Source of the DNA: Tubulanus polymorphus
Lineage: Eukaryota > Animalia > Nemertea
Assembly (NCBI RefSeq): GCF_964204645.1
Contig: NC_134028.1
Coordinates: forward strand, 14,205,653-14,269,652
Direction of reading: 5' to 3'
DNA length: 64,000 bases
The notes below the pieces were generated by a model. That model was not told the DNA's origin. It made no database searches and worked only from the letters and a program-made list of their open reading frames with translations. A program made the translations under genes and the position numbers. Shown here in pieces: positions 8,895-50,560 of this stretch. The number at the start of each line of letters is the position of its first letter. Position 1 is the first letter of the stretch.

Positions 8895-9420
8895 AGATTT
8901 ATTTATATTTGAACCGCATAATATGTTAATAACTGGAGCAACAAACTGTGGTAAAACACATTTCATATTAGATTTGTTAGAAACTATTTATAAGAATCAT
9001 TTTGATAATATAATATTATTTTGTCCTACTTGTGAAATGAATAAAACATATAATAGAGATATAGTTAAGATAAAAAAGTTTATTATATTAGATCCTAAAA
9101 CAGTAAAAGAAAATTTAGATAATTGTATAAAAATAGCAATTGATACTTACAAAGGATCAAATACATTATTCATTATAGATGATTGCGCAAATTTACATGA
9201 TTCAAAAGTGAGAGAAAGTGAGTTATGTTATCTAGCTTTCTCTGGGAGACGTTTCGGGATAACAACATGGGTTTTGAATCAAAAATATAATTCAATTGTT
9301 AAAGACTTTAGGGAGAATATAAGATTTCTAGTTTTATTTTATAACAAAGATAAAAAATCTATGCAACAATCATTGGAAGAAAATCAAATTATACCTACTG
9401 AATTACAGGATGAATATATG
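8887..9420 (+). pseudogene. A32/FtsK-like packaging ATPase, 5' part (interrupted by insertion)
   Basis: Walker A GATNCGKT and Walker B LFIIDD. The reading frame resumes after the insertion at 13521 (NKLKNNKG*KLLLRLQFPYEYKF). Confidence 0.92.
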
Positions 9421-10008
9421 AGTAATAGGGATAATAGGCTTTCAGGCCAAAGGTCGAACGGTCGAGCTCATTAAAAACCAAAACATTAAAAGTAATTTAA
9501 AACTATAATATATTTTCATAACCGTGTGCATTTTATATTAAAAACTAAATATTTATCCTAAGATATCAATAATTTAAAAAGCATATTGATTTATTTACAA
9601 TACATAATTTCATATAATCAAATATATTCAAATGATAATAATTTCTACTTGAATTAGTCGGGAAACTCATAAAAAATGAAAAATAATTCTCACACACTCG
9701 AATTTATTTTTCATTTTCTACTCGCTAGAAAAAGTGTGAGTAAAGTGTGAGTGAAATAATTCATATTTTAACAGATTTCGAGTAAAAATATAAGTAAAAT
9801 AAATGGATAACTAAAAGAATATAAAAGTGTGAGTAAAGTGTGAGTGAAATAGTTTATATTTTAAACATATTTCAATATTTATATTTGTATGAGTTAGATT
9901 TTTAAACATTAAAAGTGTGAGTAAAGTGTGAGTGAAATAATTCATAAATCATTGAATATTTATATTTATATGTGTTGGATTCATTTTAATAAAAGTTTTG
10001 TTATTAAA

Positions 10009-10609
10009 ATGAAGACAGAAGAAGAAGAACCCAACTTTAAAATCGAAATCAATGAAACCAATAAATCATTTTCACAGTTTTACATTAGAAATTATATTTC
10101 AGCAACAAATTTAGTGTCCGCAAGACATTATAAAATCGATAATATTACTATGATTAATCAAATATTATCAAATGAAACATATTTAATTACTGAACTAGTA
10201 GATACTTTTGATAATGGTGTTAAAAATCCTAAAGTATTCAATACAGTTTTAAATTTTAAAGGAACTTTAGATGAAAACATAATTAATATTCTTAAAACTC
10301 CTTTCAATGAAAGAAATAATGATATAATACTTTCAAAAGATTACAATGATTTGATTAACTTAAGAATTGAAAAAAGGCAATTATATTATTTCAATTTTGA
10401 TAATAAACAAATTATCTATAACGAAAATTCATCAAATATTGGAATTCAATGTGAATTAGATAATGAAAAATCATTTAAAGATATTGCAGTTCAATGTAAT
10501 TTAGATGATGAATTTAGAAAATTCAATCCTAATGAAAAAGCGCATTGAAAAATCACATAAATCAAAGCATTATGAAACAATTAAACATAAAAACTGGCGT
10601 AAAGAGTAA
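10009..10609 (+). pseudogene. TIR-encoded ~200-aa protein, left copy (premature stop caused by the deletion)
   Basis: MKTEEEEPNF... started from TAAAATG. The right copy supplies the C-terminus VHWYCGGKYLKSHKSKHYETIKH, a degenerate zinc-finger-like motif. Confidence 0.65.
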
Positions 10610-10660
10610 CAATTCTACATTATAATTATTGAATTGAGTTAAATGATTTAAATATCTAAG

Positions 10661-11070
10661 AGACTGTTGAAATGATAAATTGTTTGACAGTTGAAATGAT
10701 AAATTGTTTGACAGTTGAAATGATAAATTGTTTGACAGTTGAAATGATAAATTGTTTGACAGTTGAAATGATAAATTGTTTGACAGTTGAAATAATAAAT
10801 TGTTTGACAGTTGAAATGATAAATTGTTCGACTGTTGAAATGTTAAATTGTTCGACTGTTAAAATGTTAAATTGTTCGACTGTTAAAATGTTAAATTGTT
10901 CTACTGTTGAAATGATGAATTATTCTACTGTTGAAATGATAAATTGTTTGACAGTTGAAATGATAAATTGTTTGACCGTTGAAATGATAAATGGTTTGAC
11001 AGTTGAAATGATAAATTGTTTGACAGTTTTAATGATAAATAGTTTGACTGTTGAAATGTTAAATTGTTTG
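10661..11070 (+). repeat. 24-bp minisatellite, ~17 units
   Basis: Unit GACAGTTGAAATGATAAATTGTTT with variants; inverted copy at ~11846-12255. Confidence 0.95.
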
Positions 11071-11168
11071 GTTGTAAATTTAATTGTTATTTGATTTGAA
11101 ACATATAAAAGTTGAATATTTCTAAAATATCAAATATTTATCAATTTAATAATTTTTTTCTTAAATAA

Positions 11169-11387
11169 ATGGATGGTTTCATTCCAACTGGGAAAAGTGA
11201 TTTGAAACATTGTTTAGTTGCTGGAGGTTTAATATTAGCAGCATTATATTTTTACTATGAGAATATTTCAAAAGATTTGATGAATGAAAATAATAAATTG
11301 AGTAAAAAATTAAAGAAGTTAAATGGAAACAATCACAGAAATAGAAAGAATAAAAAAGGTAATTTAGAAAATGATTTAGAGGATTAA
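11169..11387 (+). CDS. 72-aa protein with one hydrophobic segment and a basic tail
   Basis: CLVAGGLILAALYFYY hydrophobic stretch; start context AATTTTTTTCTTAAATAAATGG matches the Polinton structural genes. Confidence 0.6.
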   Translation: MDGFIPTGKSDLKHCLVAGGLILAALYFYYENISKDLMNENNKLSKKLKKLNGNNHRNRKNKKGNLENDLED

Positions 11388-11425
11388 AACAGCATCTTTT
11401 AATTTCATATATTTTGACTATAAAA

Positions 11426-11728
11426 ATGAGTGAAAATATATTAAACTTATTACATCTAATATATAAAAATCAACAGAATATTAAATCAATTATTATGCTT
11501 ACAGGTTTATTTTCATTCTCAGTTTATAGTATAAAACAGTTGTTAGAATTCTATGATTGCTGTAAAATTAGATACACTGAATTAATAGAAAATATGAATT
11601 ATATTTCAGATAGATTGAATAATATTAAGTGTTGTGAAATTTGTAATAAAAGATATAAAAATAAAAAGAGTTTGAGAAATCATAAATATATTCATGAACT
11701 TGATGAAAAATCATATGATTCAAAATAA
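11426..11728 (+). CDS. ~100-aa protein with a hydrophobic segment and a C-terminal C2H2 zinc finger
   Basis: IIMLTGLFSFSVYSI; CEICNKRYKNKKSLRNHKYIH is a canonical C2H2 pattern. Confidence 0.7.
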   Translation: MSENILNLLHLIYKNQQNIKSIIMLTGLFSFSVYSIKQLLEFYDCCKIRYTELIENMNYISDRLNNIKCCEICNKRYKNKKSLRNHKYIHELDEKSYDSK

Positions 11729-11755
11729 GAAATCGACTTAAAAAATATTAAATAT

Positions 11756-13514
11756 AAAAAATTATTAAATTGATAAATATTTGATATTTTAGAAATATTT
11801 AACTTTTATATGTTTCAAATCGAATAACAATTAAATTTACAACCAAACAATTTAACATTTCAACAGTCAAACAATTTATCATTAAAACTGTCAAACAATT
11901 TATCATTTCAACTGTCAAACCATTTATCATTTCAACGGTCAAACAATTTATCATTTCAACTGTCAAACAATTTATCATTTCAACAGTAGAACAATTTATC
12001 ATTTCAACAGTAGAACAATTTAACATTTTAACAGTCGAACAATTTAACATTTTAACAGTCGAACAATTTAACATTTCAACAGTCGAACAATTTATCATTT
12101 CAACTGTCAAACAATTTATTATTTCAACTGTCAAACAATTTATCATTTCAACTGTCAAACAATTTATCATTTCAACTGTCAAACAATTTATCATTTCAAC
12201 TGTCAAACAATTTATCATTTCAACTGTCAAACAATTTATCATTTCAACAGTCTCTTAGATATTTAAATCATTTAACTCAATTCAATAATCATAATGTAGA
12301 ATTGTTACTCTTTACGCCAGTTTTTATGTTTAATTGTTTCATAATGCTTTGATTTATGTGATTTTAAATATTTACCTCCGCAATACCAATGCACTTTTTC
12401 ATTTGGATTGAATTTTCTAAATTCATCATCTAAATTACATTGAACTGCAATATCTTTAAATGATTTTTCATTATCTAATTCACATTGAATTCCAATATTT
12501 GATGAATTTTCGTTATAGATAATTTGTTTATTATCAAAATTGAAATAATATAATTGTCTTTTTTCAATTCTTAAGTTAATCAAATCATTGTAATCTTTTG
12601 AAAGTATTATATCATTATTTCTTTCATTGAAAGGAGTTTTAAGAATATTAATTATGTTTTCATCTAAAGTTCCTTTAAAATTTAAAACTGTATCGAATAC
12701 TTTAGGATTTTTAACACCATTATCAAAAGTATCTACTAGTTCAGTAATTAAATATGTTTCATTTGATAATATTTGATTAATCATAGTAATATTATCGATT
12801 TTATAATGTCTTGCGGACACTAAATTTGTTGCTGAAATATAATTTTTAATGTAAAACTGTGAAAATGATTTATTGGTTTCATTGATTTCGATTTTAAAAG
12901 TTGGGTTCTTCTTCTTCTGTCTTCATTTTAATAACAAAGCTTTTATTAAAATGAATCCAACACATATAAATATAAATATTCAATGATTTATGAATTATTT
13001 CACTCACACTTTACTCACACTTTTAATGTTTAAAAATCTAACTCATACAAATATAAATATTGAAATATGTTTAAAATATAAACTATTTCACTCACACTTT
13101 ACTCACACTTTTATATTCTTTTAGTTATCCATTTATTTTACTTATATTTTTACTCGAAATCTGTTAAAATATGAATTATTTCACTCACACTTTACTCACA
13201 CTTTTTCTAGCGAGTAGAAAATGAAAAATAAATTCGAGTGTGTGAGAATTATTTTTCATTTTTTATGAGTTTCCCGACTAATTCAAGTATAAATTATTAT
13301 TATTTGAATATATTTGATTATATGAAATTATGTATTGTAAATAAATCAATATGCTTTTTAAATTATTGATATCTTAGAATAAATATTTAGTTTTTAATAT
13401 AAAATGCACACGGTTATGAAAATATATTATAGTTTTAAATTACTTTTAATGTTTTGTTTTTTAATGAGCTCGACCGTTCGACCTTTGGCCTGAAAGCCTA
13501 TTATCCCTATTACT
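11756..13514 (-). repeat. Right TIR of the 4.1-kb element
   Basis: Reverse complement of 9421-11158. Confidence 0.95.
12305..12927 (-). pseudogene. TIR-encoded ~200-aa protein, right copy (1-nt frameshift near the 5' end)
   Basis: Near-identical to the left copy; one extra base in the A-run at ~12896-12899. Confidence 0.65.
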
Positions 13515-13624
13515 TATATGAATAAATTAAAGAATAATAAAGGTTAAAAATTATTACTGAGACTACAATTTCCCTATGAATATAAATTTTAAAAAATAAA
13601 ATTTGAAATATTATGGAAACTAAT

Positions 13625-13965
13625 TTATATTTCTATATACTAGAGGTACGTAAGAATCCAATAATTCTTACCTTTTTACTTTCTTGGCAAGAATCTTGGA
13701 TTCTTACGTACGTCTAGTCCATAGAAATATGAATTATTAAATGAAATATATAATAATGAATAAATTATATATTAAAACTATGTTTATAATTTATGTTTAT
13801 AATTTATGTTTATAATTTATTTTTATAATTTATGTTTATAATCTATTTTTATAATTTATGTTTATAATTTATGTTTATAATTTATATTTCTTGGCAAGGA
13901 TTCTTGGATTCTTACTTTCTTACTCATACGTCTAGTGCATAGATATATAAATATTTTTATAGATA
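13625..13965. repeat. Structured convergent intergenic region: inverted and direct repeats plus a 13-bp tandem array
   Basis: (TTTATAATTTATG)n at ~13780-13885, flanked by CTTGGCAAG..ATTCTTAC..ACGTCTAGT repeats; homolog at 40690-41020. Confidence 0.8.
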
Positions 13966-14335
13966 TATAAAACATGGCTGACCAGGCTGGTTGTGTATTA
14001 CCCCAGCTCTGATTGTAAAGGATTTTGCAAGCTAAGTACCAGGGTGATTGGTATTATTTTGACATCAGCATGTAGATGAAGTTTTGGTGATCGGTCTGGT
14101 GATAAGTTTACTTTATTACTCTAGAAGATCATGGCAAAAAAACTGTATTTTAACTGTATCTGGATCAGAAATTGGATTGGATTTATGTGACAGCTATCAA
14201 ATTGATCACTCACTCATTCACTCGCTGCCATAACTCGCTCGCTCACTCAACCTTGTGATTTTTGATGTGTGACAATCTGTGACTACACCACAACTGATAT
14301 TTACTGTATAACACTAAAACTTTTTTGTTTCGAGA

Positions 14336-28203: not shown

Positions 28204-28597
28204 AGTAATAGGGAATATGTTGTTTCAGATCAAAGGTCGAACGGTCGAGTTCATTAAAAACAAAACATTAAAAGTAATTTAAAACTATAATATATTTTCA
28301 TAACCGTGTGCATTTTATATTAAAACTAAATATTTATTCTAAGATATCAATAATTTAAAAAGCATATTGTATTAAATCAATTGGTCGCTCCACTTCGCTA
28401 CCGCTCCGCTCCGCGACCAATTGATTTATTTACAATACACACATTCATATAATCAAATATATTCAAATAATAATAATATTCAACTGAAATTCACACGGTT
28501 ATGAAAATATATTATAGTTTTAAATTACTTTTAATATTTGTTATTAATGAACTCGACCATTCAACCTTTAACCTGAAACAACATATTCCCTATTACT
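28204..28597. repeat. Left terminal fold-back (394 bp) of element C
   Basis: AGTAATAGGGAATATGTTGTTTCAG...CTGAAACAACATATTCCCTATTACT. Confidence 0.95.
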
Positions 28598-28676
28598 CAT
28601 AAAATATTCATATATATGAATAAAATATAAATGAATAACTTCTAAAATCAATTTTAATAAAAAATTTGATATTAAA

Positions 28677-31600
28677 ATGGAAGCAAATAAGTACTACTGC
28701 CCAACATGTAAAATCAATATAGATAAATCCCAAAAAGCAAGACACAATAAAACTAAAACACATTTAGAGAATAAATTGAAACTAGAATATAAAGATGATA
28801 TATTAGAAACTAAATTAGATGAATTAAAGAATGAAAAAAGAATGAAGAAACATATAAATGTGATACATGATAAAAGATATTATAAAGAACATTTAAAATC
28901 TAAAAGTCATATTAGAAATATGAATAATGATATTTTAGGTGAAGATTATTTTGATAATGATAATGATAAGAAACATAAGACAATTAAAAGAATAAGAAAT
29001 AAATTAAACAATAAAAGACCATACATGGAAGATGTAAGAAATTATATTAATTCATTAGATAATAAAAAAGATATAGAGATAACCGAAGCATTCAAAAGTG
29101 ATATTGGCCCAGCAGCTATCGAGTTTAAATTTCATAAAGGAAAAACATTAGAAGAAAATAAAAAACATTTAGAAAATATGAAAGAAATAATAAAAATAAT
29201 AACTGATGTTGAATATCCTAAAATTAGTATATCTTCTAATGTAAAGTTTATAAAATCTGAAGATAAACCAATATATAATATAAATTCTCATTCACAACAT
29301 ATTATTTCAAAACAACATATAGATGATAAATTAGATAAATGTTATAATGAAGTAAAAACTAAAATAGAAGAGAAATATTTTGAAGGATCTGGTTTAATAT
29401 TTGATGAAATAATATTTATGACTTTACATGTTTATAACACAAAATTATAATAAGTTAACTAAATCAAAACCAATAGATGAAAATAATGTATCATATTATA
29501 AAGATGATAATATTAACGATCAAGTTATATCAAATTACCATTTAAAACTAATGCTGTTATAAATGTACAAAATTCTGATGATAAATGTGTTCTATGGTCA
29601 ATAATTAGTTGCTTACATCCTGCAACTTATAATATTTGTAGATTAACTCATTATAAACCATTTGAAAATAATTATAAGATAGATAAGTATCCAGTTAGAA
29701 TTAAAAATATCCCAAAAATAGAAAGAGATAATGATTTAAGAATAAATGTATTTGATTTAATCAAATAACCAAATACAAAAGGTAACAATATTAAACATTA
29801 TACATTAGAACCTTTATATCTATCAAAAGATTATGATTCAAACGATGTTATAGATATATTATATTATGAGAATCATTACATGTGGATTAAACAAATCGAT
29901 TTATTTTTTAAATCAGAAAATGATCACACTCGTAAAATATATGTAGAAAATGTTTTCATAGATTCAGTAATGAAAGTGCATTATTAAATCATAAACAATT
30001 ATGTGAAAATCATGATTATTGTAAATTAGTTTTACCAAATGAAAAGGATAAAATATTAGAATTCAAAAAATATGATTACCAAAATAAAGTACCATTTGTA
30101 ATATATGGAGATTTTGAATCATTAAATAAAGAATTAACTGATCAAAATAGAAAAGAAATATATTATAAAAGAAAGAAATTAAATTATAATGAAAATGATT
30201 TTTCAGATGAACCACCAAAAACAAATACAATTAAAAAGTTTCATCAATCAGCTGCAGCTTTCGGATTATATATCAAATCTGATTATCCAGAACTAATTGA
30301 AAGTGAATATTATCATTATAGAAATGAAAATGTTATCAATCATTTTTGTGACTTATTAATTGAATATGAAATAAGATTTAGTAAATTATTGAATACAAAT
30401 ATAGAAATTATAATGACAGAAGAAGATAAAGAAGCATTTGCGTTTGCAGATAAATGCTATTATTGTGAAAAGATATTTAATTATAAAGATAAAAAAGTAA
30501 GAGACCATGATCATTTGAATGGAAAGTTTAGAGGCGCTGCACATGAGAATTGTAACTTACAAGCTAAGAAAATTAATTTTGTACCAGTTATATTTCATAA
30601 TCTATCAGGATATGATGCATATTTATTCATCAAACAGTTATGTCATAAAATAGAAGAAATTAATAATGAAATAGAAAGATTAAATTCAAATAGATCAAAA
30701 GATAAAATACCAACTTATAAATTTAGAATGTTAGCTAAAACATCTGAGAATTATATATCATTCCAATTTGGGTGTTTAAGATTTATAGATTCATATAGAT
30801 TTTTAAATAGTTCATTAGATAACTTATCAAAATCATTAGTTGATGATGAATTAAAAATATTAAAACAACACTACCCAAATAATGATGATTTCCAATTAAT
30901 GAGATATAAAGGCGCAATTCCATATTCATTTTATAAATCACATAATGATTTTAACATAACTGAATTATTAAAAGAACAATTCTATGATGACTTAAAAAAT
31001 GAATATGTTAAAGATGAAGTATATAATAGAACATTGAATATTTGGAATCATTTCAAAATAGAAAATCATGGACAATTAGTAGATTTATATTTAAAATCAG
31101 ATGTATTATTATTAACCGATATATTCGAAAAGTTTAGAGATGTAAACCTAAAATATTTTAACATTGATCCTTGTCATTGTTATTCATCACCAGGTTTAAC
31201 ATGGGATTGTGGATTAAAATTTACAGATATAAAAATGGATTTGTTAACAAATATAGATCAATTACTATTATTTGAAAAATCTATAAGAGGAGGAGTTTCG
31301 GGTGTATTAGGTGATAGATATTTCAATGTAAATGATGAAGGATATAAGTTATTATATATAGGTGCAAATAATTTGTATGGTTGGGCAATGATGGAACCAC
31401 AACCTTATGGAGTATTTGAATTAACTGAAGTTTTACAGAATGAAAATAATGATAAATTTGATTGGAAGAAAAGAATTCTAGATATTGCAGATGATTCAGA
31501 TACTGGATACTTCTTTGTTGTAGATTTAGAATATCCTGAAGATAAAAAATTTAAATCTAGAAATCTAGCTTACTGTCCCGAACATAAAACTGTAACTCAT

Positions 31601-32693
31601 GAAGAATTATCAAATTACCAAAAAAGAATTAAACCCGAAAATCATATTCATACAGAAAAGTTAATGGTAACTCAAGAAGATAAATATAATTATGTAGTAC
31701 ATTATAGAATGTTAAAGTTTTATTTGAATCAAGGAATGATTATAAAAAAGTACATAGATATATTTCGTTCAGTCAATCTAAATGGTTAGAAAATATATAG
31801 ATTTTACCACCAAACAGAGAACTGAAGCTAAAACTGATTTCGAGAAAGATTTCTTCAAGTTAATGAATAATGCATTCTATGGTAAGACTTGTGAAAATAT
31901 TAGAAATAGAAATGATATTGAGTTAGTTAGTAATGGTAAAAGAATTAGACATTTACAATCATATCCTAAGTTCATTGGTAACAGAATATTTGATGAAAAT
32001 TTAGCTGCAGTTAAGATGAGAAGAACATCAATGAAATTTAATAAACCAATCTATGTTGGCGCTTCAGTTTTAGAATTATCAAAATTACTAATGTATGAAT
32101 TTTATTATAATAGAATTACAACCACTTTTTGGAGAAAAACATATAGAAATATTATATTTTGATACCGATTCTTACATATTAAAGATAAAAACTGATAACA
32201 TAACAGATGATTTAAAAACATTAAAACATCATTTTGATTTCAGTAACTATCCTAAAAATCATGAATTGTTTAGCAATGAAAATAAAAAAGTTCCAGGGAA
32301 GTTTAAGGATGAATTAGGTGGTGAAGAAATGATTGAATTCATTGGTATTAGATCTAAAATGTATTCATATAAAACTAAAGAACATGAAGCTAAAAAGTTA
32401 AAAGGAATAACCAAAAGTGTAGTAGAAAAGAATATTCATTTAAAAGATTACATCAATTGTATATTCAATGAAGAAGTTAGAAAACATAGGATGAGATGTT
32501 TAAGATCTGAAGATCATGAAATGTTTATTGAAGAAATTGAAAAGATAAGTCTAAACCCATTTGATGATAAAAGATATATTTTAGATGATGGAATTCATAC
32601 AGTTGCTTATGGTTGCAATTTAGATGAATACTTAAAATTTAAAAGAGAAGAAACAAGGAGAACGAGATAATGAAAAGAATTCTAACGTGTTAA
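28677..32693 (+). pseudogene. polB: Protein-primed-type family B DNA polymerase polyprotein (N-terminal zinc fingers, EndoVII-like insert), fragmented
   Basis: ExoI VIYGDFES, VIFHNLSGYD, RFIDSYRF, YLKSDVLLL; Pol motifs ANNLYGWAM, KLMNNAFYGK, YFDTDS; CYYC...VRDHDHLNGKFRGAAHENCN insert. Confidence 0.95.
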
Positions 32694-32722
32694 TCAAATT
32701 TTAATAAAAATATGTATTATAA

Positions 32723-33076
32723 ATGGAGAGTAAACAAACACACAGTGAGAACAACAAATTATTTCTAGATAGAATAAAAGATACTACAAATGTAAAATCT
32801 GTAGATTATAAATTCAAAAAGTTAACAGAATTAACAATTCATAAGAAATATCTAATTACAAATATTGATACAGTTACTAATAACTATGGAGATAAATTAG
32901 TTATACACTTAGAATATGAAGGATTAAAAGGAAATACAAATAAATTCAGAACATATTTACCAGATAGATTTCATAGATCATCAAGTGAAGACCTAGAAGA
33001 ATTATGTTCTGGAGATTTCTATTTCGTATACAAAGGTAAGAATGAAAAAGGGCACCATGAAATAGATTTCGAATAA
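32723..33076 (+). CDS. 117-aa conserved protein directly downstream of PolB (possibly OB-fold ssDNA-binding)
   Basis: KKLTEL..KYLI...NYGDKLVIHL...TYLPDRF pattern; the function is inferred only. Confidence 0.55.
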   Translation: MESKQTHSENNKLFLDRIKDTTNVKSVDYKFKKLTELTIHKKYLITNIDTVTNNYGDKLVIHLEYEGLKGNTNKFRTYLPDRFHRSSSEDLEELCSGDFYFVYKGKNEKGHHEIDFE

Positions 33077-33093
33077 GAAAATATGTAAAATAA

Positions 33094-33838
33094 ATGGCGG
33101 AATTAAAAGAATACAGAATATTTGCTTACAAATTATAAATCTCATAATTTACTAGTACAATTAGATAGAGAATTTAGGAATTGTGTAGATTCAAAATTAG
33201 TTAATATAAGTTTATGTAATTCTTTTTATAATGTATCGGATAAAACTATTGAACATAGAGTCTTTTTAATTCATGATAGAAATAAAAGTAAATGGTTTCA
33301 TCTTTATCTTAAACCAGGATTATATAATTTAGAAACATTAGCTCAAGAAATTAATAAAAGAGCTCGGTTGAAAATGGGTGCATCTGCTGGATTTGGTTTA
33401 AGACTTATTAAAAGTGATAGCTCTGATAAAATAAGAATAAAATTAGGCAATGAAGATCAACATCAATTTCTAGTTAAAAAACCTTTAGCTAACATTTTAG
33501 GAATAACCCCAGATGTAAGGATACGCAATGCTGATGCTACACCAAATATAATGCCTTTTACACACTTTTATATTTATTGCAATTTAATCGATCCTACAAA
33601 AACATTCGAAGCAACTAAAGATATAACTTGTAATTCTGGTTTACTAAACATTTTACCATTGAAGAATGTTAAAGAATTTGGAACGCAAATAAATTATAAT
33701 TTAACAGAATGTGATTTCAAACCATGCATTCCTAAATTTAATAATTTTAGATTAGAAATTAGAAATCACAATGGATACTTAATTGATTTAAATAATTTCC
33801 CTGTAATTTATGAATTAGTTATAAGATGTAGAGAGTAA
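33094..33838 (+). pseudogene. Minor capsid (penton-like single jelly-roll) protein, 5' frameshift
   Basis: NSFYNV, LKPGLYN, FYIYCNLID and LEIRNHNGYLIDLNNFPV motifs resemble Polinton minor capsid proteins. Confidence 0.75.
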
Positions 33839-33855
33839 TTTTTTTCACTATATAA

Positions 33856-34197
33856 ATGAATATAACTGTTGGGCCGAGTATATGTTTTGGGTTTGATTTT
33901 AAACATGGTAAAGAAATGAGAATTAAACTAAATGATGTAATTACTGATATAAAAAGTAAATCATTTAACAATGCATCAATGATTAATAAAGAAAATTATA
34001 ATATAGAAAAAGTAATTGATTTAATTAAATCACCTTTAGAATATTATGAATTAAATGAAGATGGAATTATTGATGATATTAAAAACATATTAACCAAAAT
34101 ATATGATAATCATAAAACTAGTAATGAAATAAATGTTGAATTAATCATAAATAAGTTAACTAAATATTTTGATGATAGTAATTTATTTGATAAATAA
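33856..34197 (+). CDS. 113-aa hypothetical protein
   Basis: Intact and conserved in D (51339-51680); TAAATG start. Confidence 0.7.
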   Translation: MNITVGPSICFGFDFKHGKEMRIKLNDVITDIKSKSFNNASMINKENYNIEKVIDLIKSPLEYYELNEDGIIDDIKNILTKIYDNHKTSNEINVELIINKLTKYFDDSNLFDK

Positions 34198-34419
34198 ATG
34201 AGTGATAATAAGTGGATAATAACTGGATTATATAATGGAGCATTACTATCAGTTGGAACTGTTGGTTATTCAATGGTATCAAAAAAAGTATTCCAAATGG
34301 GAAGTGTTAATGTTGATAGATTTGATATAAATGATATTTTAAAATTAACATTAGCAGTTACTTTATCTAATTTAACTATTGATTATTTGGAAAAACAAAA
34401 ATATATTCCTCCCATATAA
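34198..34419 (+). CDS. 73-aa hydrophobic protein
   Basis: Intact in both C and D; two hydrophobic/amphipathic segments. Confidence 0.75.
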   Translation: MSDNKWIITGLYNGALLSVGTVGYSMVSKKVFQMGSVNVDRFDINDILKLTLAVTLSNLTIDYLEKQKYIPPI

Positions 34420-34443
34420 ATGCATAATTTTTTTGCTAAATAA

Positions 34444-34838
34444 ATGGCTTCTGCAATTATAACTATTATAGGATCGGCAATTGTTAACGCTTTAGCATTT
34501 ACTGGTGGCGGTTATTTATATAAGCATATTGATAAAAATAGTTCATTAGGAGAACAAAGAAGACATAATTTAGCATTAGAGAAATATAATAAAGCAGCAG
34601 AAGAATATAGAGAAAAACGACAAAACTATATGGATTACATAAATAAAGAATTATATGATCAGAAGATTTCACATAGAGATTTTCAATCAGTCGATGATGC
34701 AATGAGTTTATATAACGCAGTAACAAATAAAGAAAAATTACATCTATACAAACCAATGAACAGAAGAAATATGAAATAATATGCATTTTAGGTGAAACTG
34801 TTATTGTTATATTTGTTGCTTATAAGTTTACTAATTAG
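34444..34838 (+). pseudogene. 140-aa protein with hydrophobic N- and C-termini, 3' deletion
   Basis: MASAIITIIGSAIVNALAFTGG; intact version at 51927-52349. Confidence 0.75.
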
Positions 34839-34858
34839 TAATTTTTTTTTCTAAATAA

Positions 34859-35293
34859 ATGGAAGATAAAGTTGATAATATTGATATTATTCCTCATGAT
34901 ATAAATAAAACTAAATTAAAAACATATTTAGAAAAACAAATATTAGAATTTGAAAGTGACTTAAAAGTTAAAAAGAAAAAATATTTAAATAGTAAAATTA
35001 TATATTATCTTACTATCAGTGGTTCGGTTACAATTTGTTCGGTAATAACATTTCTAGCAATATTCAGTCCATTAACACCTTTAGCTATATCAATTGGTGT
35101 ATTAGGATTAAGTTCAAGTGTTTTAACTGGTATAAGTTCAAAATTAAATATAAAAAGTAATAAAGAAAAAATTAAAACTAATATAAAAGAAATTAATAAA
35201 TTAAAGAATACACTAGATTATATAATAAGTTTAAATGGCCATATAACAGTTGAAGAACAAGATAAATTATTAAAAGAATTAGTTAATTATTAA
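34859..35293 (+). CDS. 144-aa two-TM protein
   Basis: Two adjacent hydrophobic helices flanked by coiled segments; conserved in D. Confidence 0.75.
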   Translation: MEDKVDNIDIIPHDINKTKLKTYLEKQILEFESDLKVKKKKYLNSKIIYYLTISGSVTICSVITFLAIFSPLTPLAISIGVLGLSSSVLTGISSKLNIKSNKEKIKTNIKEINKLKNTLDYIISLNGHITVEEQDKLLKELVNY

Positions 35294-35309
35294 TTTTTTA
35301 TTTATATAA

Positions 35310-36538
35310 ATGGTAGATAGTTTTCCAAAAGCTTTCCAATATAATAAATCAATTAAATATAATATTCCAGCAATAGATTTTAATAAAGATATTACATATA
35401 GAAATGAAGTTTTAGATTCATTAACTAATTTAGAAATTTTTGTTACTGAAACTAATAATTTTAATGCTAAGATGGAAAATATATTTCATGTATATTTAAT
35501 TAATTTTAGAAAATTGAAAGATGAAAAACAATGGATATTAAAATCTAATATGAAGTATTGGCTTTACCAGGATCAAGATATTTCAAAGAATTAGATAATA
35601 ATATTAATTTATCAAAGTTTTATAAAATTTGTAATGAATTTAATATAGATATAAGTAATTCTGATTTTAGAACAAAAATTGGAACAATAAGATCACTTCC
35701 TTGCCCTAAAAAGATTGCAGAATATTGTGCACTTCCCATACCATCTAATAGTTTTTATATCTATAATAATAAATTAGGTTATGGTAAAATAGAAACTAAG
35801 GATTTAGAAACATTAAATTTCAATAAATTACCGACATTTTATGATAATTTAAAACAAGAAAACAATAATGGTTGGGTTTATTTCATTTTAGAAAATAGTG
35901 AAGGTTTTACTAAATCAGGTATAGAAAGAATAAATCAATCTATTAGAACTTATTTGATATGTATTTTAGGATCGCAAGTTGAAACAAGATCCCCAATAAT
36001 TGGAAATTTAAATACATCATTTGATACACAGAAACAATTCAAAGTATTATTTAAAGATTCCATTCATAATGATAAAAATAGATCGATTCCAGAAAACATT
36101 ATAAGATATCAAAATTAATTAGATAAATCTCATGTAAGACTTAATTATTGTATAGGCCCTAATCTATTAATTATTTCTAATGATTTAGTATTAAAGATAG
36201 GAAATATAATTGGTTATAATAATCTAATTAAAACTGCAACAATAAATAATTCATTTGGATTGAATGATATAAATAAAAAGATTATTACTGCTCCAAAATT
36301 AATGGAAGGTGAAAAAAATAAAAAATACATTCAATCAACTGAAACTAAAACTAAGAATATTAAATTGGTTAATGATTCCAAAATAAAAGATTACAATACT
36401 ACAGAAAATATTAAAACTGATAATATTCAACATGATATAATTAAACTAAATGATGATAATAAATCCCATGAAAATACTAAATTAGCTTTAACTTGTATAG
36501 GAATTGTAATCGGAGGAATATTATATTTTAAATTTTAA
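35310..36538 (+). pseudogene. Conserved ~430-aa protein with C-terminal TM segment, internal deletion and stop
   Basis: Homologous to 52820-54160; lacks the CATTGCG segment because of a deletion at ~35561. Confidence 0.75.
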
Positions 36539-36554
36539 TTTTTTTATTATGTAA

Positions 36555-38261
36555 ATGGCAGAAGGTGGAGAAGGTTTTCCATTGGGTGGCATTGGAAATA
36601 ATAATGAAGGATTTATACCTGATAAACCACAACCTGATTTTGATGAAACAAGTTTTAATGATGGTAATGAATCAGCATATAATTCTAATTTAGGTGAAGA
36701 TGATTCTAGTGGGCCTATATTATATGATTATGATGAATTTAAAGATGATACTGAAACAAGTGAAAAATTAATAGATTATTTAAGAACACGCGATGAGATA
36801 ATAATTAAAACTAGACCAAAAAGAAAAGATTTAATTAATAGATTAGAAAGAACAGAAAACCCTGAATTGAAAAAAGAATTATTATACATAAAACATAGTG
36901 TAACAAATACAGTTATTGAAGAATTATTACCAAAAAATGTAACATATAACATTGAACCAGAAGATATTGCAATACAAATTGTAGAAGATGATCCATTCTT
37001 CATGAATAATTTAGAATTTAAAAATGATTCATGGTTTTATAAAGTTGAATTAAATAACGAAACTGTATCAATTCAATTATCTAAAATGGGACAAAAAGAT
37101 CTGTACCATCCTGAAATGCGTGCAGGATCTTCAATTGAACGTTCAAAAGGTGGTAGAGAATTTCTCAGAATTATATGGAATGCAATCGATAGAATAAATG
37201 AAGAACATATTCATAATATTGATATAAACAAATATTCACCATTTAAAAATCCAAATCCAAATCCTACTGATGTTGATCCAGAAACTGATGAAGATTTTGC
37301 AAATCGATTAGATAGATTAAGATCTTCAACGCCCGAAACATCGAGAAGAGACACTCAACCAATTGATAATGATTCAAGTCAATTACAATTAGTATTAGAA
37401 GAACAAATTGATAGATTAAGAGATTCAGAAGAAGAGATGAATAGTACTGGAATAAATCGAATACAATCTTTACTAAAAAAAGGACTTCTTAAATTAACTG
37501 ATGATGAATTGGAAGCATTTCCTGAACAATCACGTAGAGAAATTAAAGGTATACAAGAATCAGCTGATGTAAATGCTAATATTAATATGAGATTTTCTAA
37601 AATAGCCATGTTAGAAAAAGAATTAGCTATTGCAAATGAAAAATTAGAACAATTAGAATTAAATAGAGATCTTAATGTAATTTATGAAGCTTATTATGAA
37701 AGCGGAAAGTTAGCTTTAGAAAAAGAAATAGATGATTTAAAATATAATATAGAATTACAGAAAGAAGAAAGAGATACATTATTAAAATCATATGATCTTA
37801 ATCATATTAAAAAATTTAAAGTTATTTTTAAAGATTTGTTGATAAAACCAAATTCTGAAATATCATTGAAAGATAGAATAAAATTATAATTTAAGTTAGA
37901 AGGAATAACAATTCTTTCAATTCTAACAGCTGTAACTATGTTATTTACAACAATAGGTTTAGCAATATCAAATGCTTTAAAATCTACTCCTACTCCCAAT
38001 AAACCGGATAAACCCCCGAATGATAATAATTCTATACAAGATAAAGTTAAGGATGGTTTAAGAAAATTAGCAAAATATTTATGGGAACTATCTAAAAAAT
38101 CTGCTGCAGCTTTACCAGGAATTATTGCATCAATTGTTGGTTTTATATTGAAATCTGCAGGAAACATTATTAACTTTGCTGCTGAACATATTATTTTATT
38201 TTTAATTACAGTTGTAAGTGCTATTATTTTTGGGTTAGTAAACAAGATCAAAAATAAATAA
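36555..38261 (+). pseudogene. MAEGG-type coiled-coil/membrane protein (~568 aa, one internal stop)
   Basis: The 444-aa and 107-aa ORFs are in the same frame, separated by TAA; C-terminal hydrophobic helices. Confidence 0.8.
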
Positions 38262-38281
38262 TTAATTTTTTTGTTAAATAA

Positions 38282-39524
38282 ATGAGTGGGAGTTATATCA
38301 ATCCTTCTAAGAATCATAGAATATCTAATGCTATTAAAGCAGAAAGATCACATCATATAATTACTCATAACCCTTCTAACATTAATCCTGATGAAACTTT
38401 ATATGTTATAATTCCTCGATTAACACAAAATACTTTTTATGTTCCAAATAGTATTTATTTATCAGCCGATATAAAAGTAACTGGTCATGATAATAATTAT
38501 GTTGTTGATTATGTTGGAAGATATTCGATTAAAAAATTAACTATAAAGATTGGTCCAGAAACCGTTTTCTCATTAGATGATTATAATTTATTTATGCATT
38601 ATAAAGATTTATGGTTAACTAAAGAAAATAGAAATAATATGATATTTCAAGGAATCCAATCAGAAAACCATAATAAATTAAGATCAGGAGCTAATGACGC
38701 AATAGTAACTCGTACCGCAGATAATTTGATTAAAAAGATTCATGGAAGCAAATATAAAATTCCATTAGACTTTGAATTGATAAATAATAATGCGCCTTTA
38801 TATAAATACGCAATTCAAGAAGACGTTATATTCGAAATAACATTTGCTCCTGTAAATGAAATTGTATTATCTAGCGTAAGATATGAGTTATAATTTATCG
38901 AATATATGTTTAGAATATGACACAGTAACTGATTAAAATATTGCAAGTATAATTCAAACTAAATACAATCAAGGATTTTCATTATTATATGATTATATTG
39001 ATAAATTTAAAACCGTAACTATTAATGCAAATGATGAAATTATTAATGAGAATATTAACTTCCCAAGAAGATCTATTAAAGGTATATTAATATTTTTTAC
39101 CATTGCAACATATTCTAATGGTGCAATACAGGTTGATAAGTATTATAATCCTGAAATAACAAAAGTAGAAATAACTATCGAAGGAATAGCAAATAAAATA
39201 TTTTGTCAAGGAATGAGAATGATAGATCAATGGCCAGAAATTAGAAAACATTTTATGAATGAAAAAGTAAAATCATCTGAAAATTGTAATATTAATCAAA
39301 TTGATTATTATACCGGTAATAAATATGCATTATGGTTAGATTTTAGAACAACGGAGGATAATTCATTACATGGTTCTGGAAAAAAATTACAAAACACTAA
39401 AGATGGAATACAATTATTCATGACAAAGAAAAAAGGAAGCTTAAATTTCAAAATGCACGTTTATATTATATCTGATGCGCAATTAAATATTGTAAATTCT
39501 CAATTAAATAGTGTTATGTATTAA
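38282..39524 (+). pseudogene. Putative double jelly-roll major capsid protein, disrupted
   Basis: Highly conserved across B, C and D; ~410 aa; beta-rich pattern (NPSNINPDETLYVRIP, IPLDF, LEYDTV, INENINFPRRSIKGILIFF, YALWLDFR). Confidence 0.72.
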
Positions 39525-39556
39525 AATTTTAACTTTAATAAAAAATCTTATATTAA

Positions 39557-40681
39557 ATGGAAGGTGGAATATATGAAATACAAACTCCAAGTGAAATGAT
39601 AACAGATATATATTATATATTACCTTATGATGAATACATTAAGTATTTTGGAGATTACCTTAATCAATTCAAATATAGAATAAGTAAAATAAAAGATAAT
39701 ATTGAAACTAAAATAGAAGATAAGAATGATATTGAATATAAAATAGAAGATGATATTGAAACTAAAATAGAAGATAGTAATAATATTGAAACTAAAATAG
39801 AAGATGTAACAGCATCTACATCTTATAATATACCCTCTACATATGATATTGAATCAAAAAAAGATTATTATAATCCAAAATATTGTGATGTATGTAAGAA
39901 ATATATATCATATAAAAATTGGGCATCACATAAGAAATCAAAGAAACATATAGAAAAAGAAAAGAATAATAATGATAATAATATATCAGTTAGTAATATA
40001 AAAGATAATGTTAACCCAATTGAAACTAATGATACCATAGATAATATAACAGATAATGTTTACCCAATTGAAACTAATGATAATGATATAACAGATAATG
40101 AAATAATTGATGATTCTAAAAAACATTGTAACATTTGTAATTTAGATATTTCTAAAAGTAATTTTTCTAAAAATAAAAAATCTAAGGGGCACATAGAAAA
40201 TGAAAAAGAATTAATATGTGATTATTGTAATAAAGAAATTGAACCTGTTGATAAAATTACTTATTATAAATCAAAATTACATCTAATTATTGTTTATAAA
40301 AAAGTGGGTATGTTACCATTGTTAGATGAACCAAAGAAATATATCAAATATTTTAATCCTGAAACTAAACAATATCATATATTCTTTAAGTTGTCATTTG
40401 ATAAATTATTAGCTTATGCAGAAGATAATCCTGACCAAATATATAAATTAGCGTATAATGGATACCTAGATTTATTTAATTTAATAAATGATTTTGAATT
40501 TGATTTTGATGGTGATAATTCTAATGATTACTTTGAAAAATTAAGAATAAAAGCTGGATTAAGTGATGATGAACGTAGAATGAAGGATGAAATAGAATTA
40601 ATAAATATGCCAAAGACTTCTGATGAATTTGATATAAACAAAGATGATTTTATAAATGTATTAGAAACAAAATTAGAATAA
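39557..40681 (+). CDS. Multi-zinc-finger protein with IETKIED repeats
   Basis: Three CxxC...H..S..H-type motifs (some degenerate); homolog of 19655-20749. Confidence 0.8.
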   Translation: MEGGIYEIQTPSEMITDIYYILPYDEYIKYFGDYLNQFKYRISKIKDNIETKIEDKNDIEYKIEDDIETKIEDSNNIETKIEDVTASTSYNIPSTYDIESKKDYYNPKYCDVCKKYISYKNWASHKKSKKHIEKEKNNNDNNISVSNIKDNVNPIETNDTIDNITDNVYPIETNDNDITDNEIIDDSKKHCNICNLDISKSNFSKNKKSKGHIENEKELICDYCNKEIEPVDKITYYKSKLHLIIVYKKVGMLPLLDEPKKYIKYFNPETKQYHIFFKLSFDKLLAYAEDNPDQIYKLAYNGYLDLFNLINDFEFDFDGDNSNDYFEKLRIKAGLSDDERRMKDEIELINMPKTSDEFDINKDDFINVLETKLE

Positions 40682-40689
40682 TTATTATA

Positions 40690-41020
40690 AAACTATTTAT
40701 ATATCTATAAAAATATTTATATATCTATGCACTAGACGTATGAGTATGAAAGTAAGAACCCAAGAATCCTTGCCAAGAAATATAAATTATAAACATAAAT
40801 TATAAACATAAATTATAAACATAAATTATAAACATAAATTATAAACATAGTTTTAATATATAATTTATTCATCATTATATATTTCATTTAATAATTCATA
40901 TTTCTATGGACTAGACGTACGTAAGAATCCAAGATTCTTGCCAAGAAAGTAAAAAGGTAAGAATCTTACTTTCTTACTCGTACGTCTAGTACATAGAAAT
41001 ATAAATTAGTTTCTATAATA
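40690..41020. repeat. Structured convergent intergenic region (candidate bidirectional terminator)
   Basis: ATTTCTATGGACTAGACGTACG...CGTACGTCTAGTACATAGAAAT inverted repeat and (TATAAACATAAAT)n array between convergent gene blocks. Confidence 0.75.
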
Positions 41021-41037
41021 TTCCAAATTATAAATAG

Positions 41038-41649
41038 TTATTTTATAAATTTATATTCATATGGAAATTGTAGTCTCAGTAATAATTTTGAACCTTTATT
41101 ATTCTTTAATTTATTCATATATTCATCATGTAATTCAGTATGTATAATTTGATTTTCTTCCAATGATTGTTGCATAGATTTTTTATCTTTGTTATAAATT
41201 AAAACTAGAAATCTTATATTCTCCCTAAAGTCTTTAACAATTGAATTATATTTTTGATTTATAACCCATGTTGTTATCCCAAAATGTCTCCCAGAGAAAG
41301 CTAGATAACATAACTCACTTTCTCTCACTTTTGAATCATGTAGATTAGCACAATCATCTACAATGAATAATGTATTTGATCCTTTATAAGTATCAATTGC
41401 TATTTTAATACAATTATCTAAATTTTCCTTTACTGTTTTAGGATCTAATATAATAAACTTTTTCATCTCAACTATATCTCTATTATATGTTTTATTCATT
41501 TCATAAGTAGGACCGAATAATATTATATTATCAAAATGATTCTTATAAATAGTTTCTAACAAATCTAATATGAAATGTGTTTTACCACAATTGGTTACTC
41601 CAGTAACTAACATATTATGCGGTTCAAATATAAATAAATCTTTACTCAT
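41038..41649 (-). CDS. A32/FtsK-like genome packaging ATPase (intact)
   Basis: GVTNCGKT Walker A, LFIVDD Walker B, SGRH arginine motif, NQKY sensor. Confidence 0.93.
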   Translation of the reverse strand: MSKDLFIFEPHNMLVTGVTNCGKTHFILDLLETIYKNHFDNIILFGPTYEMNKTYNRDIVEMKKFIILDPKTVKENLDNCIKIAIDTYKGSNTLFIVDDCANLHDSKVRESELCYLAFSGRHFGITTWVINQKYNSIVKDFRENIRFLVLIYNKDKKSMQQSLEENQIIHTELHDEYMNKLKNNKGSKLLLRLQFPYEYKFIK

Positions 41650-42751
41650 TTATTCTTTTAATTTTACTAGATAAAATCCATTCATTAAATTTATCATCGT
41701 ATCCTTTATATTTCACCAAAGAATACTTTTTTCCTTTAAGAGTTTTCGTTTTCAATACTTTTTCTATTTTGTATTCTATTTCATCTGGATTTGGTACAAG
41801 TGATAATTCTTGTTCATAGAAATAACCTAATATTTCTTCATCTTTTATATCTTCTAATTTATAAACAAAAGGTTTAGTTAATATTATCTATTTAATCTTG
41901 AATATTTCTTCAGTAAAATTTGGGGTATAACCTTTATAAAAAGTTTTTCTATATTTAGATATTCTTACGTGTTGTCCTATTTTAAATTTAGGTTCACCGA
42001 AATCATGTGTAACAAACGCTCCATATAAATTATTCCAAACTATTTCCGAATTATCTTCTTTTCTAGCTTGTATAGGTTTCATATTTATAGAACTATGTTT
42101 AGAATTATTATAACCTTTCACTAAATCATCTAATACATCGATATATTTGTATGTTTCATTAGCAGTAAAATATTTCCACATTCTAGTTTTCAATGTTTTA
42201 TTAAATCTTTCTATAATACATGCTTTTTTATCCGAGTGTGTTGAAAAATAATCTACATCGTTATCAGATAATAGTTTTTTGAAATGTTTGTTATAAAATT
42301 CCTTACCTTCATCAAATTGTATCTTATCTGGAATAGCTTCTTTAAATATATTCTTAAAAGCATTTGTCACTTCTATGCCAGTTTTATTTTTGATTGGAAT
42401 TGACCATGCGTATCTACTGAATATGTCTATAACATTTAATATCCAGAAATATCCTTTGTTGTATTCCTCTAAGTTCTTCATGTCAATTAAATCTGCTTGC
42501 CATTGTTGATCGATATATGAAACCATAACTTTTCTTGTTTTATCCATTTTCTTGTGGATTTGATATGTTGGTTGATTTTGTAACCATGATTTCAATTCAC
42601 TATATTTTATATCACCGTGTGGGTGCCATACGGCACCATTACCATTTTCCTTATCAGATTTAATTTTACCCCATAATTCTGTAACGTTAGAATATGATAC
42701 TTCACTTTCTGGGTTATAATATAACTCTCTTAAATATTCTTCTTTTTTCAT
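41642..42751 (-). pseudogene. rve integrase with chromodomain, internal stop at 41888
   Basis: Intact DDE core (WQADL, QFDEGKEF, IERFNKT); the chromodomain lies after the stop. Confidence 0.93.
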
Positions 42752-42757
42752 CTTATT

Positions 42758-43156
42758 TTAATCCATTAATAATAATTTAGATTTAGTTTCAATGACTTTA
42801 TGATTTGACTTATTTTCTGGTATGATAGGTTTACTGTCTGTATACGGATAACTAAGTTTCCGATTGTTATTGGAATCATCTTTATCATCAGATTTGAATT
42901 TTGATTTATATATTACACCGGATAATATAATAATTGTGATTAACCCAATTGTAATATATAAGTAATTATTTCTTCCACTATTAGAAGAATTAGATGGATT
43001 ACTATTTGAATCAATATCAGATAAAGTCGGTGATTCATTTATATCAGTTAATTTCTTTTTCTTAGCTTTTTTTAATTCTGAAGATCTTTTACCCAATTCT
43101 CTTGTCCATTTAATTTGTTTTTCAGATCTAGCCTTTTTCTTAACATCATCACTCAT
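42758..43156 (-). CDS. 132-aa basic single-TM protein
   Basis: Lys-rich N-terminus and YLYITIGLITIIILSGVIY TM segment; conserved in B and D. Confidence 0.75.
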   Translation of the reverse strand: MSDDVKKKARSEKQIKWTRELGKRSSELKKAKKKKLTDINESPTLSDIDSNSNPSNSSNSGRNNYLYITIGLITIIILSGVIYKSKFKSDDKDDSNNNRKLSYPYTDSKPIIPENKSNHKVIETKSKLLLMD

Positions 43157-43159
43157 TTA

Positions 43160-43757
43160 TTTTAGTTAATTTTTGTTCTGATTCATTTTCTGTTTAGACG
43201 TTTGGTTGTAGTACAGCGTCATCTGTTTCGTTCTTACCTGATTTATATTCCATAGGCTTGATGTTCGAAAATGTTATGACGCCAGTAGAAATTAATGTCA
43301 AAACCGATCCTAATTGAAATGAAGCATATCCGACCCATTTTTGTAATTCAGTCATAACTAACTAGTCATTTTTCAAATCACTATATAATTTATTTTCATC
43401 ATCAATTGGTATTAACTGGTTACATAACTTAGAGTAACATTTTATAATACCATCACTTATAGAGTCGTTTATTCTAGCTAATCTAGCTTCTTCATAAATC
43501 TAAAAATATTTTATTACTTTATCGGGTTTCATAGCATCTAATTCTTGAAAAGTTATTATTTTCCCGATAAACTGATTACATTTACCACTAGCAATTAATA
43601 ATTCTAGATGGTGCTTACAATATAAATAGTATTCATAATCAATATTACAATTAATATTATTTTCAATTTTGATTGGAATATCCTTATTATCACTAATACC
43701 TAAATCATCTAATGTTTTTTCAATATCAATACTATTCTTACTCGATTTCTTTGACAT
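43160..43757 (-). pseudogene. Conserved ~200-aa hypothetical protein, internal stop
   Basis: Homologous to 6818-7425 and 60307-60887. Confidence 0.7.
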
Positions 43758-44016
43758 TTATATTAGAGAAATTAAATAAGAAAAATATTATAAGTATTAT
43801 AAAATGATACCAGTATCTTTTTAGATTAATACTAGCTTAGTTAAAGGTAAATAATTTTAGTATTAGTTATTGTTTTTTTAGTATTTTTTATTTGTGATAT
43901 AAAGTATTCTTTTTTGAAAAGAAAATATTAAAAAAACAATAACTAATACTGGCTAGTTGAAGATATGTAATTTTTAATACTTTTTATTTAAAATCTATTA
44001 TTCTTTAACCACTCAT

Positions 44017-44996: not shown

Positions 44997-45075
44997 TTTA
45001 ATATCAAATTTTTTATTAAAATTGATTTTAGAAGTTTTTCATTTATATTTTATTCATATATATGAATATTTTAAG

Positions 45076-46040: not shown

Positions 46041-46246
46041 CTTAAAATATTCATGTAAATGAATAACATTTAAATTGAAAGATTATTCAATATAAAAGTA
46101 TATATTTACAACATTATTTCAATATTCATATTTGTGTGAGTTAGATTTTTAAACATTAAAAGTGTTAGTAAAGTGTGATTGAAATAATACATGATATAAA
46201 TCATTGAACTTCTAAAATCAATTTTAATAAAAAATTTAGTATTAAA

Positions 46247-50161: not shown

Positions 50162-50190
50162 TCAAATTTTAATAAAAATATGTATTATAA

Positions 50191-50543: not shown

Positions 50544-50560
50544 GAAAATATGTAAAATAA

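Follow-up and report, generated by a model that had tools for sequence, protein, structure and literature searches.

A multi-copy, non-autonomous fold-back element with Polinton ends and orphan genes in the genome of Tubulanus polymorphus

Autonomous Polintons, also called Mavericks, measure 12.7-24.6 kb and carry terminal inverted repeats (TIRs) starting 5'-AG and a 6-bp target-site duplication (TSD), according to the available portions of PMC8097293 and PMC3014272. The available portion of PMC8097293 also gives TIRs of 46-1,447 bp for intact vertebrate Mavericks and states that Polinton replication and particles have never been directly observed in animals. Non-autonomous Polinton families keep Polinton ends without the enzymes, are multi-copy and are moved in trans. 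One of them, Polinton-1N1_DR, was reportedly described by Kapitonov and Jurka in 2006, with 'N1' said to denote non-autonomous. The name of this zebrafish family appears in PMC9341505, and no non-autonomous Polintons were found in Anolis according to PMC3014272 (available portions of both). Transpovirons, of ~7 kb, encode a superfamily 1 (SF1) helicase and ride on mimiviruses, and Tlr1 is treated as a Polinton-like virus (PMC5499653, available portion). Here we describe an element of 4,094 bp, the 4.1-kb element, at positions 9421-13514 of a 64,000-nucleotide stretch of the nemertean Tubulanus polymorphus (contig NC_134028.1, positions 14,205,653 to 14,269,652), which is referred to as the window. 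The element is nested in the ATPase gene of a decayed Polinton, Polinton B, one of a cluster of four (A-D) within the window. It is a genuine fold-back Polinton element that is non-autonomous, was inserted recently, exists in multiple copies and carries orphan genes, and with a probability of about 0.62 we regard it as a satellite that is moved in trans by the polymerase and integrase of full-size Polintons, its helpers.

The left end of the 4.1-kb element is AGTAATAGGG at 9421, and the reverse complement of the same 10-mer finishes at 13514. This 10-mer was also present at the ends of Polintons A-D, so that the Polinton-type ends claimed in a preliminary description of the locus were recovered, and the TIRs have the 5'-AG...CT-3' form of Polinton ends. 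The first 110 nt were 90-95% identical to five of the six neighbouring ends, those of Polintons A, C and D, and just 61-62% identical to the left end of Polinton B. The TSD of the element, TATATG, is 6 bp long, as had been claimed, like those of Polinton C (CATAGA) and Polinton D (TACGTT). Two inverted arms, which differ by 17 substitutions and 2 indels (1.0% divergence), account for 85.4% of the element and enclose a unique core; the palindromic share of ~85% and the core of ~600 bp given in the preliminary description were therefore accurate, and so was the 24-bp minisatellite reported for each arm. In the two minisatellites, the order of unit variants is the same at 15 of the 17 units. The terminal 168 bp of the left arm were 89-93% identical to the ends of Polintons A, C and D, and further TIR-like patches were found at 9585-9655 and 9730-9956, reaching to about position 650 of the arm. 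The start context of the gene located in the arm (arm gene) was 73% identical over 89 nt to that of the terminal gene of Polinton C. According to the list of open reading frames (ORFs) and a Pfam scan, no PolB, integrase or capsid ORF, no ORF longer than 200 aa and no helicase match occur within 9421-13514, which agrees with the earlier statement that the first three are missing. The element thus lacks the capsid and ATPase genes of autonomous Polintons and, at 4,094 bp, their size of 13-25 kb.

Copy number and layout were examined in raw Illumina reads of 150 nt (run X5, 1,934 Mb) from a study other than that of the best-matching runs, which were four from one study containing 0.10-0.52 of the sequence words of the stretch. 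The reads covered the whole 4.1-kb element, and all 30 bins of core and right arm were filled. At 90% likeness, depth was 560x for the helper integrase/ATPase, 306x for the arm gene and 91x for the core; at 85% likeness, it was 410x for the arm gene and 149x for the core. Because just 133 of 4,967 reads reached at least 99% likeness to the element, most family reads being 85-99% alike, many diverged copies must be present. The family is multi-copy and diverged, and a single copy, which according to the preliminary description would have refuted its reading, does not apply: the core stood at 149x in 1,934 Mb. If a genome of 0.2-2 Gb is assumed, the depth corresponds to ~15-155 copies of the core. 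The left edge of the core was joined on the opposite strand to position 11756 in 12 reads with 10 starts and to position 11817 in 9 reads with 8 starts, indicating that the core is flanked by an inverted arm in this sample also. A further 1,563 reads ended at 9421 with unlike flanks (agreement 0.34). This terminus is common to the helpers and the element, and the unlike flanks indicate that this type of end has many insertion sites genome-wide. Depth of the minisatellite (10662-11070, 11844-12252) was ~1,345x, versus 67-222x on either side (85% likeness), which could reflect either longer arrays in other copies or a repeat that is also present apart from the 4.1-kb element.

Beyond ~650 bp, the single DNA match of the element to Polintons A-D was a stretch of 58 nt at a gene-start context, and the best matches of its four ORFs to the rest of the window were equalled by 32, 32, 7 and 34 of 50 shuffles. 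As there was one such DNA match and no protein match above the shuffled controls, simple deletion from A-D, with which it showed no internal collinearity, does not account for the element, and its genes are absent from these four Polintons, as had been proposed. A likeness of the arm ORF start to the helper terminal ORF (tblastn E 0.002-0.006, 192-aa query, no composition correction) was rejected because the 179-aa form did not rise above shuffles and the match lies in the shared start context.

The left arm ORF is open from 9970 and comprises 192 aa if counted from its first ATG, or 179 aa if translation starts at the ATG (10009) that lies in promoter context. In the right arm, the longest ATG frame (12784-12305) encodes 159 aa and has a zinc-finger-like stretch at its end. 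Between the copies there is an indel of 1 bp near 10035/12899, by which the right copy is frameshifted close to its 5' end relative to the left one, and another of 19 bp at 10548/12366-12385, which is a gap in the left copy near the 3' end of the gene relative to the right arm. TIRs of ~1.75 kb, each with an ORF of ~200 aa, had been described; the arm length was confirmed, the ORF lengths were not. Two small core genes with hydrophobic segments, one of them with a C2H2 finger, had also been described. Both ORFs were found; their peak 19-residue hydropathy was moderate only (1.44 for the 72-aa ORF and 1.48 for the 100-aa ORF), and the C2H2 finger of core gene 2 stayed under the curated Pfam cut-offs (E 0.001-0.003). 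The hydrophobic segment and basic tail of core gene 1 resemble those of several small capsid-module genes of the helper. An ORF of 140/147 aa in the minisatellite was rejected as a gene: four of the six unit frames are stop-free, and its ATG ranked ~900 of 2,575 on both upstream motifs described below. The open frame is probably incidental, since these frames are stop-free and no promoter motif precedes it.

Core gene 2 was the only one of the three genes with a database relative. This protein (P0001) is 64-66% identical to it and retains the finger residues, but is a singleton, and its contig of 1,030 bp provides no gene context. The predicted model of core gene 2 is a single long helix (predicted local distance difference test, pLDDT, 76; predicted template modelling score, pTM, 0.39) and had no match among viral structures in Foldseek; its Atlas matches were all <0.9 and fell into generic C2H2 clusters, and no relative was found in metagenome contigs. 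For core gene 1, the protein search returned no candidate homologue. The arm protein yielded 41 candidates among 5.8 billion proteins (near lengths only), none of them at E 0.001, and no match among 1.84 billion representative proteins, among PDB sequences or in viral contigs; it had no usable Atlas match and only matches below cut-off in Pfam, and its single-sequence fold was unusable (mean pLDDT 30.9). Neither the arm gene nor core gene 1 had a relative in any of the searches made, and both are classed as orphans. No expression dataset was present among the runs matching the stretch. The short motifs GIQCE and AVQCN of the arm protein resemble the dynein-light-chain site of gephyrin, EDKGVQCE, as given in the available portion of PMC12057147; this likeness and the finger-like stretch of the right arm may serve as leads to candidate roles of the arm protein.

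The genes of Polintons C and D (28204-45459, 45631-63890) were found to have two classes of upstream motif, which possibly represent two expression phases. In class 1, before the capsid-module genes, a T-run is followed by TAAAT(A)AATG; in class 2, before terminal and accessory genes, TAATAAAA is located ~20 nt upstream. The TAAATG ending of the capsid-module motif recalls poxvirus late promoters, and 'early' and 'late' are used here as analogies only. Matrices were built from seven capsid-module genes of Polinton C and from five terminal-type genes. Core gene 1 scored 14.9 on the capsid-module matrix (leave-one-out range 6.2-21.1) and ranked 9 of 2,575 ATGs, surrounded by starts in Polintons B and D. 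The arm ATG at 10009 scored 13.1 on the terminal-gene matrix and ranked 7 of 2,577. These motifs are suggestive of core gene 1 and the arm gene being real genes. Variants in the X5 reads were tabulated for the 40 best-supported of 235 places, 26 of them in the three ORFs. Eighteen of the 26 were common to 53-84% of the reads, and 10 of these 18 were synonymous, compared with 22% expected (binomial p 0.002). Synonymous changes made up 4 of 5 shared sites in core gene 1 and 4 of 6 in core gene 2 (8 of 11 in the core genes), and 2 of the 8 near-private ORF sites. Core gene 2 is polymorphic for an insertion of 3 bp (31 reads), and the frame was maintained at two of the three rare joints found within the arm gene. 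From these variant patterns, the two core genes are likely to be kept by selection, and the synonymous excess could also have been inherited from an unseen parent element.

The arms, at 1.0% divergence, are about as alike as the TIRs of Polinton C (1.2%) and Polinton D (2.3%) or more so, and much closer to each other than the family reads are to the 4.1-kb element, from which these mostly differ by 1-15%. Among the arm sites listed, there were 18 at which at least 90% of the reads differ; the rare letter was present in both arms at 8 of these, 3 of which sit in the low-depth minisatellite end, and in one arm at 10. Rare letters common to both arms would be the expected trace of fold-back replication or of gene conversion between the arms.

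If the element is a satellite moved in trans, polymerase and integrase would be borrowed from full-size Polintons via the shared ends. The protein-primed polymerase of the helper would prime at both ends of the element, and the strand displaced in this way would form a panhandle of 1.7 kb by folding, restoring the origin. Copying between the arms in the panhandle would account for the rare letters common to both, and the helper integrase would insert the element with a 6-bp duplication. A panhandle replication model was reportedly put forward by Kapitonov and Jurka in 2006. The proposal of the preliminary description is thus supported in part: the element is non-autonomous, has helper-type ends, a 6-bp TSD, many copies and genes unmatched in A-D, two of them with a selection signal, whereas the targeting of the ATPase is not supported. 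In Mavericks, protein-primed initiation is the expected role of repeated end motifs (PMC8097293, available portion). Tentatively, the arm gene may be expressed along with the terminal genes of the helper, and core gene 1 along with the capsid-module genes of the helper; the products may act as small accessory proteins, either DNA-binding or membrane-associated, to the benefit of the satellite's copying, nuclear transport or packaging. It is rather doubtful whether the element is a satellite of an animal Polinton virus in the strict sense, that is, an independently evolving, hairpin-replicating unit with early- and late-type genes that is copied by the helper polymerase, packaged in the helper capsid and able to tune or suppress the helper. 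If so, it would represent in eukaryotes what satellites are among phages, ranking one step beneath virophages and transpovirons.

Several observations weigh against a gene-bearing satellite. The depth ratio of arm gene to core was 3.4 at 90% likeness and 2.7 at 85%, compared with the 2 expected of a two-armed family; depth dropped from 410 to 222 just beyond the arm gene, and 106 reads exited the arm at 12325 into other DNA. The core/arm junction was covered at 67x, versus 149x for the core (85% likeness). From these results, some arm-gene copies, and perhaps some core copies, lie in another or more diverged context, either in sister satellites with other cores or in a larger Polinton. No other complete copy bounded by a TSD of its own was seen in these 150-nt reads. 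Both copies of the arm gene in the 4.1-kb element are damaged, and no function can be assigned to any of the three genes. The training sets of the motif matrices (seven and five genes) had been grouped by eye after the contexts were seen, and the upstream motif of core gene 2 is weak (rank 27 of 2,575). The variant sites, drawn from the 40 best-supported places, are linked and hence not independent; the shared sites of the arm gene had no synonymous excess (2 of 7), and the contrast between shared and private sites was not significant (Fisher p 0.16).

The strongest competitor, which we nevertheless consider unlikely, is an internal-deletion and copy-back derivative of a full-size Polinton subfamily outside the window, amplified like a giant miniature inverted-repeat transposable element (MITE) or a defective genome. 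A terminal accessory gene would then have become the arm gene and small internal genes the core, and the selection signal would have been inherited from the parent. Such an origin agrees with the first 650 bp of the arm being Polinton TIR, with the arm gene beginning where the terminal gene of the helper begins, and with the helper motifs at the gene starts; the helper is also rich in similar small hydrophobic genes, and most vertebrate Mavericks have accessory regions on either side of their core modules (PMC8097293, available portion). The surplus arm-gene depth and the 106 reads with loose ends at 12325 would likewise fit. However, all three genes are unmatched in the four Polintons of the window despite ends that are 90-95% alike, and the helper has PolB directly after its terminal gene, where the 4.1-kb element has the minisatellite. 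Core depth also lies within a factor of 1.5 of the two-armed expectation, and joints of the core with an inverted arm were seen in the other sample, both of which are better accommodated by the satellite.

It is far less probable that the element is an accessory segment or mutualist of a Polinton virus, a separately integrated module that serves the helper cycle. Upstream motifs of both helper classes, the probable selection on the core genes and a family depth under that of the helper (core 91x and arm gene 306x against 560x at 90% likeness) would suit such a module, but Polintons C and D possess the full set of PolB, integrase, ATPase and capsid-like ORF although they lack the element, and nothing shows that the helper depends on the element. 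Long palindromes are a known artefact of long-read data. An assembly or long-read fold-back artefact is the least credible of the alternatives and is already refuted for the element family: the TSD is clean and the host gene resumes after it, 17 substitutions and 2 indels separate the arms, which enclose a unique core, and Illumina reads from another study fill all core and right-arm bins and show the inverted joints.

The ATPase gene that received the insertion (Pox_A32, E 1.8e-11) is broken after codon 178, and the right flank resumes from 13515, matching Polinton C 41121-40696. The preliminary description was thus correct in placing the element in a packaging ATPase. Its suggestion that the helper is parasitised or targeted through knockout of this gene was rejected as unsupported: Polinton B has other lesions, namely a stop in the integrase frame, two stops in the capsid-like ORF and an insertion resembling a long interspersed nuclear element (LINE), no PolB of Polinton B was found within the window, and 47,891 of the 59,906 bases outside the 4.1-kb element (80%) match Polinton C or D. 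Since Polinton DNA makes up 80% of the neighbourhood, a random insertion is to be expected to fall within a Polinton gene, and chance in a Polinton-dense region is the most likely explanation. No sign of targeting or of damage to an active helper was seen. The helper ATPase had no match in viral contigs, and Polinton terminus patterns had none in metagenome and viral contigs.

The window has a guanine-plus-cytosine (GC) content of 25.6%, and its features are collected in Table 1. Polintons C and D encode pieces of PolB, rve integrase, A32 ATPase and a capsid-like ORF according to Pfam, the match of the last being weak (E 0.005). They are separate insertions 171 bp apart (45459-45631), and Polinton DNA from the four elements fills 80% of the window, which points to a cluster or an insertion hotspot. 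In their PolB frames, a stretch like recombination endonuclease VII (PF02945) was observed (C 30413-31789, E 5e-5; D 46998-48725, E 8e-5). The protease belongs to the core genes of vertebrate Mavericks; with regard to 28204-45459, no match to a cysteine protease was obtained among the 36 ORFs scanned against Pfam, and no further search was made. At every end of the full-size Polintons, the terminal 110 nt recur in inverted orientation ~400 bp inside (190 bp in B), forming a fold-back within the TIR (28204-28597, 45076-45459, 45631-46040, 63481-63890, 2306-2709 and 4057-4250); unlike these ends, the 4.1-kb element has no inner AGTAATAGGG copy. The left end of Polinton B (4057-4250) is of another TIR type, 56-69% identical to the other ends over 110 nt, although its internal genes are ~90% identical to those of C and D. 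The LINE-like insertion in Polinton B (~14000-19600) contains reverse transcriptase (PF00078, E 3.5e-24) and endonuclease-like ORFs. Near one end of Polinton D, a GC-richer tandem repeat of 125 bp was found (62022-62589), with a related array in B (5286-5719); it is missing from the corresponding part of Polinton C.

Table 1. Features of the window, with positions counted from its first nucleotide
Feature	Position	Strand	Basis
Polinton A	right end at 2709		end motif
Polinton B	left end 4057, broken off near 24993		end motif
A32-type packaging ATPase of Polinton B, 5' part, 178 codons	8887..9420	+	Pfam Pox_A32
Left TSD copy, TATATG (6 bp)	9415..9420	.	sequence
Left arm, 1,738-bp inverted repeat	9421..11158	+	self-comparison of sequence
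Polinton-TIR-derived arm portion	9421..10068	+	DNA identity to Polintons A, C, D
Arm gene, left copy, 179 aa from ATG in promoter context (putative)	10009..10548	+	ORF, upstream motif
24-bp minisatellite, left copy, 17 units	10662..11070	+	tandem-repeat finding
Unique core, 597 bp	11159..11755	+	between arms
Core gene 1 (putative), 72 aa, hydrophobic segment and basic tail	11169..11387	+	ORF, upstream motif
Core gene 2 (putative), 100 aa, predicted long helix and C2H2-like finger	11426..11728	+	ORF, Pfam, model, one relative
Right arm, 1,759-bp inverted repeat	11756..13514	-	self-comparison of sequence
24-bp minisatellite, right copy, 17 units	11844..12252	-	tandem-repeat finding
Arm gene, right copy	12305..12926	-	ORF comparison with left arm
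Right TSD copy, TATATG	13515..13520	.	sequence
ATPase gene 3' end and following Polinton B DNA	13521..13971	+	match to Polinton C
Polinton C, 17,256 bp, TSD CATAGA	28204..45459		ends and TSD
Polinton D, 18,260 bp, TSD TACGTT	45631..63890		ends and TSD

An element of 4 kb that keeps only the ends of its helpers marks the cis-signals that are sufficient for copying and integration, and arm-to-arm copying would preserve a fossil trace of the fold-back step that protein-primed replication is predicted to include. Should the orphan genes be under selection within a non-autonomous family, then Polintons themselves have satellites that carry genes, and these would argue for an active virus-like Polinton cycle that is worth parasitising. 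No description of a palindromic, gene-bearing Polinton satellite was found in the literature searched, which is weak evidence of absence as the founding Polinton papers and Repbase lay outside it. The available portions of PMC6431247, PMC11296320 and bioRxiv 10.1101/2024.01.15.575659, whose supplements could hold examples, describe no such element.

The 4.1-kb element is neither an autonomous Polinton nor a transpoviron. With copy-back and snap-back defective viral genomes, which contain parental sequence only and are short-lived, it has in common a mirror-image molecule that keeps the replication ends of its parent; in contrast to them, its internal genes do not occur in the local helper and its family is diverged and integrated. 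With autonomous Polintons or Mavericks, it shares TIRs starting 5'-AG, the 6-bp TSD and ends 90-95% identical to those of C and D, but it lacks their core genes, and its 1,738-bp arm is longer than the TIRs of intact vertebrate Mavericks (PMC8097293, available portion). Its end motif AGTAAT is a variant of the Maverick (AGT)2. Transpovirons and Tlr1 are likewise small linear DNAs with inverted ends and accessory genes, without virion genes and reduced from the Polinton supergroup (PMC5499653, available portion). The element differs from transpovirons in having no helicase or integrase, in being chromosomal and in sharing its ends with the helper, so that the analogy with transpovirons drawn in the preliminary description is a loose one, these having an SF1 helicase and riding on giant viruses. 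The element behaves as a non-autonomous Polinton moved in trans would: the ends are shared with an autonomous family and several copies exist. Among non-autonomous Polinton families, the 4.1-kb element may stand apart in being 85% inverted repeat and in carrying orphan genes with helper start motifs and a probable signal of selection.

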